The notes: a model not told the origin generated them from the letters alone. A stretch of 32,000 nt of DNA from an uncultured archaeon (GCA_964354495.1 CAYHAA010000007.1:60001-92000); one strand, 5' to 3'; shown: positions 972 through 3,098, counted from the first letter of the stretch. Made by a program: numbers and translations.

Positions 972-1115
972 GTGGTATACACCTGTCATAACTGTCATCG
1001 AGAAGTAACCCCTGATGGTCTTAGGACACTGCCAGGCGTCAAATGTCCCTACTGCGGTGGCAGAATTCTCTACAAAGTCCGTCCGCCAGTAGTAAAACGC
1101 GTGAAGGGCGCCTGA
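972..1115 (+). CDS. rpoP: DNA-directed RNA polymerase subunit P (Rpo12)
   Basis: GTG start; MVYTCHNC..KCPYCGGRILYKVRPPVVKRVK matches the Rpo12/RPB12 zinc-ribbon pattern. Confidence 0.92.
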   Translation: MVYTCHNCHREVTPDGLRTLPGVKCPYCGGRILYKVRPPVVKRVKGA

Positions 1116-1136
1116 AGATTTCACTCTCTTTGTTCA

Positions 1137-1238
1137 TCACATCATGCCAAGAATCAACATTGTTGTTATCACAGCTGATGCAAGCAGCAGTATCAGAAGG
1201 ATGATAGAGTACACCTTCTTTCGGGTTTCACGCTTCAA
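1137..1238 (-). CDS. Putative 33-aa single-TM microprotein (not in ORF track)
   Basis: TTG start overlaps the TGA of the GET3-like gene (TTGA); GGAGG 7 nt upstream; MKRETRKKVYSIILLILLLASAVITTMLILGMM then TGA TGA. Confidence 0.7.
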   Translation of the reverse strand: MKRETRKKVYSIILLILLLASAVITTMLILGMM

Positions 1239-2257
1239 GTTCGGCCCTCCGTGTTTCCAATCAGAATCATGCCCAGCCTTGTAAGTTCTTCGATTCCCCT
1301 TATTTCTCCATCAAACAATGGAACCTCGGTGATATCGATGTCGGAGAACAGGTCTCTAATGTCTATGAGATTCGTCTGTTGCATCTCATATCGTTTTGTG
1401 CAGAACTTGCAGGATGGATTAGGAGGAACAAGCTGATTCACGACCATATTGGTGGCAGGTATGTGCCATTTGTCTAGGCTAGCGAGCAGACGTTGCGTCT
1501 CGAAGACTGCCATTGCTTCTGGAATCATGACGACAACAAACTGCGTTGTGTCCGGGTCGGAGAGTTCGATACGGGCTGTACGGATCTTATCCTTGGTCTG
1601 TTGAATCATCTCCCAGGAGCTGTCTTCTTCTTGCTTTCCGCCGCCAAACATACTTTTGAGCCCACCCATCATCGCGCTCAGCCGCTGACGAAGGGTCATC
1701 ATTTTGCCCAACCAACTATCCAGGAGGTCTGGCAACTCAAGGAGCTTCAGAGTATGACCTGTGGGTGCAGTATCGAAGATGACCCGATCATAGGAGGAGT
1801 CCTCGATGAACTCGAGTATCTTTCCGAATGCCATTGCCTCATCCGATCCGGGTGGTGTCATGCCTGTCATGTCGCCCATGAGATTCGCAGCCATCTGCGC
1901 CTCAGGACCTGCAGCTCCGGCCCCGATAATGTCTTGGAACTGCTGCATTCCCTTCTCAGTGCTTATTTCCATCGCCCAAAGATTATCGAACCCCTCGATA
2001 GGAATGACCTCTCCGCCTGACAGGTTCTGGTTGAAGCTGTCACTGAGACTATGTGCTGGATCAGTGGACAAGACTAGAGTCCGAAACCCATGTTGTGCCG
2101 AAAGCACTGCTATTGCACCAGCACAACTTGTCTTTCCGACTCCTCCTTTACCTCCCGAGAGTATGAACTTGACCGAGTCTCTGTAGATAATATCCTTGAG
2201 AGCCATTCCAAGACCTCTGAGAGGCTGATTATCTGGTCTCTCTATTAATGCTTCCAT
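1235..2257 (-). CDS. GET3/TRC40-like ArsA-family ATPase (alternative start 2206)
   Basis: GGKGGVGKT deviant Walker A, STDPAHSLSD, DTAPTGHTL, Met-rich insert, CKFC motif, single ATPase domain. Confidence 0.9.
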   Translation of the reverse strand: MEALIERPDNQPLRGLGMALKDIIYRDSVKFILSGGKGGVGKTSCAGAIAVLSAQHGFRTLVLSTDPAHSLSDSFNQNLSGGEVIPIEGFDNLWAMEISTEKGMQQFQDIIGAGAAGPEAQMAANLMGDMTGMTPPGSDEAMAFGKILEFIEDSSYDRVIFDTAPTGHTLKLLELPDLLDSWLGKMMTLRQRLSAMMGGLKSMFGGGKQEEDSSWEMIQQTKDKIRTARIELSDPDTTQFVVVMIPEAMAVFETQRLLASLDKWHIPATNMVVNQLVPPNPSCKFCTKRYEMQQTNLIDIRDLFSDIDITEVPLFDGEIRGIEELTRLGMILIGNTEGRT

Positions 2258-2372: not shown

Positions 2373-3098
2373 ATGTCGTTCCCACAAGTCCGAACCACAG
2401 CAGTCGAGTTCCCCTCTACTATCCTTGGATTACTAGGTCTAGAGATTCCAGAAGGGCTGTATCCAGCAAATCAAGAACTGGTCGGTAAGTTCAATCCCAA
2501 AGCTGTGGTCATCGTGGTCATCGACAACTTTGGGCTCTTTGAAGCAGTTGTCTACAAACCTGAGGCACTCATCAAGAATATGGAGGCTCTTGCCCTCCTC
2601 GAGACTGATGACCCCTACGCAATTCCTCTGATCAAGACTCTCTTACAAGGACCTCGTTCTGACTTTCATCTGATCAAACACATCAAAGACTGTGGTAAAG
2701 TGATCAAGATCATATGCAGGGAAGCCGACCAAGCTACTTTAGGATTTGACTCAGCGTATACGGTCACCCCGCATGATGATATGGCAACGTATATTGAGGC
2801 TACGAAGTACATCTTCAAGAGTGAGCTTCTATATCTCCACTTTTTGGACTTTGAGAGCCTCTATGCTCAGTATGGGCACAGGACCCCGCCTAAGACCCTT
2901 CTTGAGAAAATAGTTCGACGAACTGACAACTGGATAAAGGTTCTACTCAGACAGGCTCGCGATGAGACATTGTTCATTGTAATTGGCAATCATGGTCGCC
3001 ATCCAGTTCCTCTTGACTACGAAGGCAAACTGGCTGAGTGGCGTAAGGCAAACTCTCCAATCGCTATGATTTTCCAAAAACGTGCAGGACACTCCTAG
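2373..3098 (+). CDS. Alkaline phosphatase-superfamily fold protein, degenerate
   Basis: VVIVVIDNFG resembles the first metal motif; FIVIGNHG resembles TADHG. Confidence 0.5.
   Translation: MSFPQVRTTAVEFPSTILGLLGLEIPEGLYPANQELVGKFNPKAVVIVVIDNFGLFEAVVYKPEALIKNMEALALLETDDPYAIPLIKTLLQGPRSDFHLIKHIKDCGKVIKIICREADQATLGFDSAYTVTPHDDMATYIEATKYIFKSELLYLHFLDFESLYAQYGHRTPPKTLLEKIVRRTDNWIKVLLRQARDETLFIVIGNHGRHPVPLDYEGKLAEWRKANSPIAMIFQKRAGHS

Follow-up and report, generated by a model that had tools for sequence, protein, structure and literature searches.

Some of the Asgard archaea have an undescribed and, by sequence comparison, well-conserved microprotein family that shows genetic coupling to Get3. In the window, i.e. 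the whole 32,000-nucleotide stretch of DNA analysed here, a member of this family is encoded on the minus strand directly downstream of a Get3/TRC40-type ATPase gene. Judged from the junction between them, the microprotein gene and the only Get3 ATPase gene of the genome form a two-gene, translationally coupled operon. The microprotein gene is listed in no annotation. The features that make up this pair are the following:

1137..1238, minus strand: microprotein gene, 33 codons and a TGA stop, defined by sequence and translation
1235..1238, minus strand: start/stop overlap TTGA, composed of the Get3 stop TGA and the microprotein start TTG
1246..1250, minus strand: Shine-Dalgarno-like GGAGG inside the last Get3 codons, 7 nt (gccgaac) 5′ of the TTG
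1235..2206, minus strand: ATPase of the Get3/TRC40 type, with 323 aa if read from M18, the probable start; the ORF at its longest extends to 2257

The minus-strand ORF 1238..1140 encodes a product of 33 aa, MKRETRKKVYSIILLILLLASAVITTMLILGMM, whose N-terminal stub is basic (MKRETRKK, in which residues 2-8 comprise five K/R and one E) and whose hydrophobic segment spans residues ~10-33 and reaches the C-terminus. The Get3 ORF ends in ...GGA AAC ACG GAG GGC CGA ACT TGA, and the microprotein TTG (1238..1236) has its TG in common with the Get3 stop (1237..1235), an overlap that reads as a translational-coupling junction. Directly 3′ of the microprotein ORF lies a pair of stops, TGA TGA at 1139..1134, the second of which occupies 1134..1136; this double stop was seen only in the window’s genome, while relatives carry a single TAA, TAG or TGA. 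We confirmed at their reported positions all the features from which the initial annotation had proposed the gene, namely the TTGA overlap, the GGAGG at 7-nt spacing, the KRETRKK sequence followed by a hydrophobic helix and the double TGA. The tail-anchored topology that it had proposed also proved correct, as the single hydrophobic stretch (~10-33) runs to the C-terminus and relatives have 0-6 residues after the helix. There is no signal sequence, and in 40/40 members the net charge over the N-terminal 8-10 residues lies between +3 and +6, so that by the positive-inside rule the N-terminus is predicted to be cytosolic. The transmembrane domain (TMD) is very hydrophobic, with Kyte-Doolittle values of 2.5-3.4 over 15 residues across the microprotein loci.

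The upstream gene had been described as a GET3 homologue, and its assignment to the Get3/TRC40 type was borne out by matches to Pfam ArsA_ATPase (7.8e-87) and NCBIfam TIGR00345 GET3_arsA_TRC40 (287 bits, cut-off 135) and by strong PDB matches to archaeal Get3 (3zq6 and 3ug6), human ASNA1/TRC40 (6so5) and yeast/fungal Get3, with bacterial ArsA scoring far below the Get3 structures against the window’s ATPase. The protein has a single-domain ArsA fold with a P-loop, a DTAPTGHT switch, a CKFC (CxxC) zinc motif and a Met-rich insert, and its gene is the only one of the Get3 type in the 3.3-Mb, 97.7%-complete genome. Its translation probably starts at M18 (window 2206) and not at 2257, because the 17-codon extension contains an in-frame TGA in five relatives and the alignments of other families start at approximately the same Met. 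The first codons of the extension (MEGL/MEAL; window 2207..2257, minus strand) are nevertheless conserved, and the two observations together suggest a promoter or 5′ leader rather than coding sequence. In our own reading of the alignment, the Asgard Get3 consensus I.E.Y.DF presumably corresponds to part of the yeast DELYED receptor-binding motif. No Get3 residues cleanly tracked the presence of the microprotein, and the differences found among Get3 sequences followed phylogeny.

A 30-38 aa ORF of the same build, with a basic N-terminus (net +3 to +6) and then one C-terminal transmembrane (TM) helix, was found directly 3′ of Get3 in 56/56 loci inspected, which cover five GTDB families. In the first set of loci, defined by relatives’ Get3 at 73-97% identity, 30/30 had an ORF of 32-38 aa, with its start at -1 to +8 nt relative to the Get3 stop. 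The microprotein was also present 3′ of Get3 in five more genera of the window’s own family (f1), in the single genome of the sister family f2 (offset +46), in two genomes of f12 and one each of f15 and f6, in 15 further loci, and in one further Thorarchaeota-related MAG whose Get3 is 74% identical. The position relative to the first base of the Get3 stop was -1 to +8 nt in 36 of 40 loci, the offsets observed being -1, 2, 3, 5, 6, 8, 14, 15, 17 and 46 nt. Start codons in these 40 loci were ATG (22), GTG (10) and TTG (8); GGAGG preceded the start in 17/40 loci compared to 1% of background windows, and a 4-mer Shine-Dalgarno (SD) core did so in 33/40 compared to 13%. In the same-family loci, the microprotein frame was open in 35/35, whereas each of the other five frames had stops in 18-34/35, and codon-position entropy (1.16/0.74/1.61 bits) followed the order second < first < third. 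In close pairs pN was lower than pS (e.g. 0.031 vs 0.44), with a median dN/dS of 0.31. Conservation beside GET3 homologues, which the initial annotation had proposed to check by synteny and dN/dS and the lack of which would have spoken against its proposal, was thus found at every inspected locus in five Asgard families, together with coding constraint and a kept ribosome-binding site. We regard 1137..1238 on the minus strand as very probably a translated protein-coding gene, and these patterns indicate that, in Thorarchaeia and three further Asgard families, purifying selection has conserved the gene together with its ribosome-binding site and its place at the Get3 stop. One locus (L080, genome G011, with 9% genome contamination) contains a second microprotein-like copy at 282-407 on the minus strand, ...LMSLCMVLLFLGSFAVGVLLLYTP, 0.6 kb downstream of the regular copy; this copy is N-terminally degenerate and without the basic start, and may be a decayed duplicate or an assembly/strain artefact.

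In the alignment of members (A1), sequence identity outside the closest clade is only 22-41%, with a fixed architecture. The N-terminus follows the pattern M-[KR]-x-x-x-[KR]-x-K, with K/R at positions 2, 6 and 8, K8 conserved in at least 90% of members and a basic cluster in all of them (net charge of the first 10 residues +3 to +6). The ~21 hydrophobic residues that follow include an invariant mid-helix Ser21, usually preceded by Ala or Gly and part of an S-xxx-[AGST] motif in 32/40 members, and most members end in a short Y-[RK]-P-type tail.

Two readings would deny that this is a novel, independent protein. The first, which we consider very improbable, is that the ORF represents a C-terminal extension of Get3 produced by read-through or frameshifting (a membrane-anchored isoform), or else non-coding conservation. 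The overlap of its start with the Get3 stop in the window’s genome and the use of TTG, a weak start, would suit such an extension; however, the frame relative to Get3 is not fixed, which argues against any read-through or frameshift product, each copy has its own ATG, GTG or TTG start, usually with an SD sequence, and substitutions in the microprotein frame follow the pattern expected of a protein. Gene callers have also independently predicted homologues of 32-36 aa, which form 13 representative clusters. The other reading is that the microprotein is a true reduced homologue of Get2/CAML, Sec61beta or EMC6. The basic N-terminus followed by a TM helix recalls the logic of Get2, and the RETR of the window’s genome resembles the RERR motif that the initial annotation had invoked, but RETR occurs in only 7/40 members and just the basic character is kept. 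The likeness to Get2 did not hold as homology either, since there is one TM helix compared to two or three in GET2/EMC6-type proteins and no Pfam or NCBIfam match, and as the genome has its canonical Sec61beta and its EMC6-like protein at other places, we find such homology scarcely credible.

Neither Pfam (E <= 0.01) nor NCBIfam (E <= 0.1) gave a match to the microprotein, and a protein atlas search with it returned only unnamed clusters at 0.79-0.81, which is chance level. Among 1.84 billion representative proteins only 13 matches were obtained, all of 32-36 aa and either unnamed, ‘hypothetical’ or ‘uncharacterized integral membrane protein’; the window’s own microprotein sequence is absent from a 15-billion-protein collection, and no mention of a small protein encoded with archaeal Get3 was found in the literature searched. 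Three specific identities were rejected. Sec61beta (PF03911) gave no match to the microprotein, and the canonical Sec61beta of the genome was found elsewhere with 50.7 bits. EMC6 and EMC6-like proteins (PF07019, PF19094) gave no match and have two TM helices instead of one, and the EMC6-like gene of the genome lies on another contig. CstX of the cstA-arsA operon was discarded as no cstA is present here and CstX has ~90 aa.

To determine the distribution of the family, a profile built from A1 was used to scan 400 Asgard genomes. Against the window’s own genome the profile gave exactly one significant match (E 2.9e-11) and no second copy. Profile-positive genomes amounted to 81/85 in f1, the four misses being genomes that are 71-83% complete, 1/1 in f2, 1/1 in f6, 16/19 in f12, 4/4 in f15 and 6/6 in f24. 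Because the GTDB class of the window (Thorarchaeia) consists of f1 and f2 only, f6, f12, f15 and f24 belong to other Asgard classes. The probable homologue in f24 (E down to 1.8e-6) is located ~0.87 Mb from Get3. No profile match of any kind was obtained in f3, f7, f8 and f13 in the 400-genome scan, and only weak matches, away from Get3, in a Heimdall-labelled genome (f18), in f29 and in the large family f9. Weak matches in other families (E ~1e-3 to 1e-2) were rejected as false positives, most of those listed lying inside long ORFs; of 12 weak matches in short frames that were fetched, none adjoins Get3. Inspection of 78 further loci, ~60 of them from non-Asgard archaea (e.g. Methanobacteria, Halobacteria, Poseidoniales) or bacteria, likewise gave no such ORF 3′ of Get3. 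In Candidatus Altiarchaeales archaeon WOR_SM1_SCG (L115), a 66-aa ORF begins 7 nt after the Get3 stop; it has two hydrophobic segments and a sequence unrelated to the Asgard microprotein.

In the Get3 tree, the carriers fall into three clades (f1 with f2; f12; f6 with f15), with f12 as sister to f3, which is without the microprotein, and f8, also without it, nested inside f6 and f15, on an unresolved backbone. An old pairing with Get3 followed by several losses, or several transfers, are possible explanations of this pattern. As most Asgard families and all inspected non-Asgard Get3 loci are without the microprotein, its distribution marks it as a lineage-specific accessory, and since there are lineages that run Get3 without it, it cannot be the core receptor. 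The earlier suggestion that it could be a missing part of the archaeal GET pathway was therefore not upheld, given that the gene was not found in most Asgard families searched or beside Get3 in the ~60 non-Asgard loci.

The wider neighbourhood of the pair includes two further genes:

2373..3098, plus strand: 241-aa protein, divergent neighbour of Get3, with weak Pfam and NCBIfam matches
972..1115, plus strand: rpoP (RNA polymerase subunit P), with a Zn_ribbon_RPAB4 match

The 241-aa protein has a faint similarity to the alkaline-phosphatase/phosphopentomutase superfamily. Its gene adjoins Get3 in 30/30 same-family loci matched, where complete copies are 68-96% identical; it is 40% identical to the product of the gene upstream of Get3 in f12, and a homologue is found near Get3 in f24. 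It appears from this to be a conserved Get3 neighbour across Asgard classes, and we use it as context only. On the microprotein strand there is no gene downstream, the convergent rpoP being found there instead. The end of rpoP is 21 nt from the microprotein stop, a tail-to-tail order kept in most family loci, and both transcripts must consequently terminate in a very short shared spacer. A DUF47-like gene and, in f1, rpoP also belong to the conserved neighbourhood, and the neighbours other than the microprotein change order and orientation between classes. Because the region is generally syntenic, with the 241-aa neighbour also kept, linkage alone is weaker evidence than it may appear. In f12 and f24, a protein of 112-126 aa is encoded directly beside Get3 (L180:5503-5883, minus strand; L183:3028-3387, plus strand; L184:5009-5347, minus strand). 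It has an acidic N-terminus, three predicted TM helices, the motifs ATxLF and LIGGxxRxRY and no Pfam family, and could be a membrane partner of Get3 in these two families; a single-sequence query did not find it in the window’s genome.

The microprotein resembles several known systems, each in part. It shares with tail-anchored GET clients such as Sec61beta the lack of a signal peptide and a very hydrophobic TMD, the only one, at the extreme C-terminus, as well as a predicted cytosolic N-terminus and a predicted need for post-translational insertion, but it has 33 aa compared to about 55-100 aa and almost no cytosolic domain, and its gene shares an operon with that of the targeting factor, while the genome’s real Sec61beta is encoded elsewhere. 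The bacterial KdpF and CydX and the tail-anchored sarcolipin and phospholamban have, like the microprotein, ~30-50 aa, a single TM helix and a short polar tail; they act by packing their helix on a larger machine, in whose operon the bacterial ones are encoded. Their partners are integral membrane enzymes, whereas the operon partner of the microprotein is a soluble ATPase that visits the membrane. Yeast Get2 and mammalian CAML are likewise membrane-embedded, with a basic cluster on the cytosolic N-terminal side and a genetic tie to Get3, and the microprotein could in principle contact the putative acidic receptor-binding face of Get3. However, Get2 and CAML have three TM helices, are related to EMC6 (PMC8675477), possess an N-terminal region that is long and flexible and have Get1/WRB as their partner, in contrast to the one TM helix and the 8-10 residue stub of the microprotein, which has no sequence similarity to them and no conserved RERR-like motif; the comparison is at most an analogy. 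In cstA-cstX-arsA operons, too, a single-domain ATPase of the ArsA/Get3 family stands beside a small single-TM protein (Castillo and Saier 2010, PMC2963123), but CstX has ~90 aa and always occurs with the transporter CstA (PMC2963123), whereas no cstA is present here and the ATPase is of the Get3/TRC40 type.

No GET2-like protein has been detected in archaea, for which an insertase made of YidC/DUF106 and an EMC6-like protein has been proposed; Lewis and Hegde proposed the EMC6-like protein as the root of GET2 (PMC8675477). Genes for EMC3/DUF106 and for an EMC6-like protein are both present in the window’s genome. Its EMC3/TMCO1 (DUF106, archaeal YidC-like) paralogues are located outside the window, at G000:C7:34001-34471 and G000:C11:35413-35868; f1 and f2 mostly have two such paralogues and most other Asgard families searched have one, and in many f1 genomes one of the two is found 25-37 kb from Get3 on the same contig. 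The second EMC3/DUF106 paralogue was considered as a co-occurring Get1-like partner and rejected, as f6, f12, f15 and f24 have one copy; the copy number of the EMC3/DUF106 and EMC6-like genes does not track the microprotein.

Judged from its length, the microprotein is probably a Get3 client. As encoded, the product consists of a strongly basic stub of 8-10 residues and one very hydrophobic helix with an invariant Ser in an S-xxx-small motif. The length of the ribosomal exit tunnel is known, and a chain of 30-38 aa would fit whole inside it and would be released before the TMD emerges. Co-translational targeting by SRP would therefore not be available and insertion would have to be post-translational, most simply by Get3 translated from the same mRNA. 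It is less certain that the inserted microprotein would stay in the pathway as a membrane-side accessory, where the basic stub, lying at the surface of the membrane, could serve as a dock for the acidic receptor-binding face of Get3 and the S-xxx-small helix could pack on itself or on an Oxa1-type insertase (EMC3/DUF106 with the EMC6-like protein). Such a dock would be a functional analogue, not a homologue, of the Get2/CAML tether. We assign a probability of roughly 0.38 to the full reading, according to which the microprotein would be inserted by Get3 and would then serve within the pathway as a membrane-side dock or insertase accessory. Its strictest form is that, in Thorarchaeia and allied Asgard lineages, the microprotein would be the Get3 membrane dock, itself loaded by Get3 and recruiting Get3 with its cargo to the Oxa1-type insertase by means of stub and helix, as a minimal counterpart of the Get2/CAML tether without homology to it; this form is doubtful.

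A role as a dock is favoured because small membrane proteins usually become part of the machine that their operon encodes, because the charge density exceeds what topology alone would need, because no Get3 receptor has been identified in archaea, and because a conserved Ser and an S-xxx-small motif imply that the helix packs specifically. Against it, the stub has only 8-10 residues compared to the much longer N-terminal region that Get2 carries on a long tether, and the positive-inside rule alone could explain its basic character. The restriction to certain lineages, the f24 copy that is unlinked from Get3, the syntenic nature of the region and the Get3 residues, none of which tracks the presence of the microprotein, also speak against it. 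Prediction of a complex of the Get3 dimer (A3) with the microprotein (A1), 2 ATP and Zn gave a score of 0.01 in a run without controls and counts neither for nor against binding.

An alternative explanation is that the microprotein is only a dedicated or privileged client, i.e. a cargo delivered by Get3 and encoded beside its chaperone, as is the case for many prokaryotic chaperone-client pairs, whose real job would be that of a small subunit or regulator in another membrane complex. GET clients typically have the textbook tail-anchored topology and very hydrophobic TMD seen here, the helix is likely from its invariant Ser and S-xxx-small motif to pack specifically in the membrane, and the unlinked f24 copy fits a function without Get3 in cis. 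However, the genome has Get3 as its single general targeting factor, and it is hard to see why one among many cargoes should stay coupled to it across several Asgard classes; moreover, there is no candidate partner complex nearby, only convergent rpoP being found downstream; we regard this explanation as only somewhat less probable than the dock. Less probable still is that an unrelated small membrane protein is merely co-transcribed with Get3 as part of an inherited gene order. The conserved wider neighbourhood (the 241-aa gene, the DUF47-like gene and, in f1, convergent rpoP), the patchy taxonomic distribution with Get3 working without the microprotein elsewhere, and the lack of Get3 residues that co-vary with its presence all speak for inherited order. 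Such an order does not readily account for a microprotein that keeps its -1 to +8 nt junction (36/40) and its SD sequence while the neighbours change order and orientation, nor for a pairing that survives in three separate clades of the Get3 tree.

Taken as a whole, the pair represents a new variant on the GET arrangement and not a system of a categorically new kind. What it can tell about how eukaryotic Get2 arose is limited, because the microprotein is absent in most Asgard families, including the one Heimdall-labelled genome that was inspected. The route by which archaeal Get3 reaches the membrane is a matter of interest in itself, as no Get1/Get2-type receptor has been identified in archaea and the pair of YidC/DUF106 and an EMC6-like protein is only a proposal (PMC8675477). 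What is new here is the physical coupling of Get3, in relatives of the eukaryotic ancestor, to a strongly conserved gene that annotations do not list, a reminder that genes of less than 40 aa are routinely missed in Asgard genomes. The microprotein can be tested as a candidate for either a partner or a dedicated cargo in the archaeal GET pathway, and because the pair is small (a 323-aa ATPase and a synthesisable peptide of ~33 aa), binding, modulation of the ATPase and recruitment to liposomes can be tested directly. Even if it were only a privileged cargo, the microprotein would provide a natural model substrate for the archaeal GET pathway.
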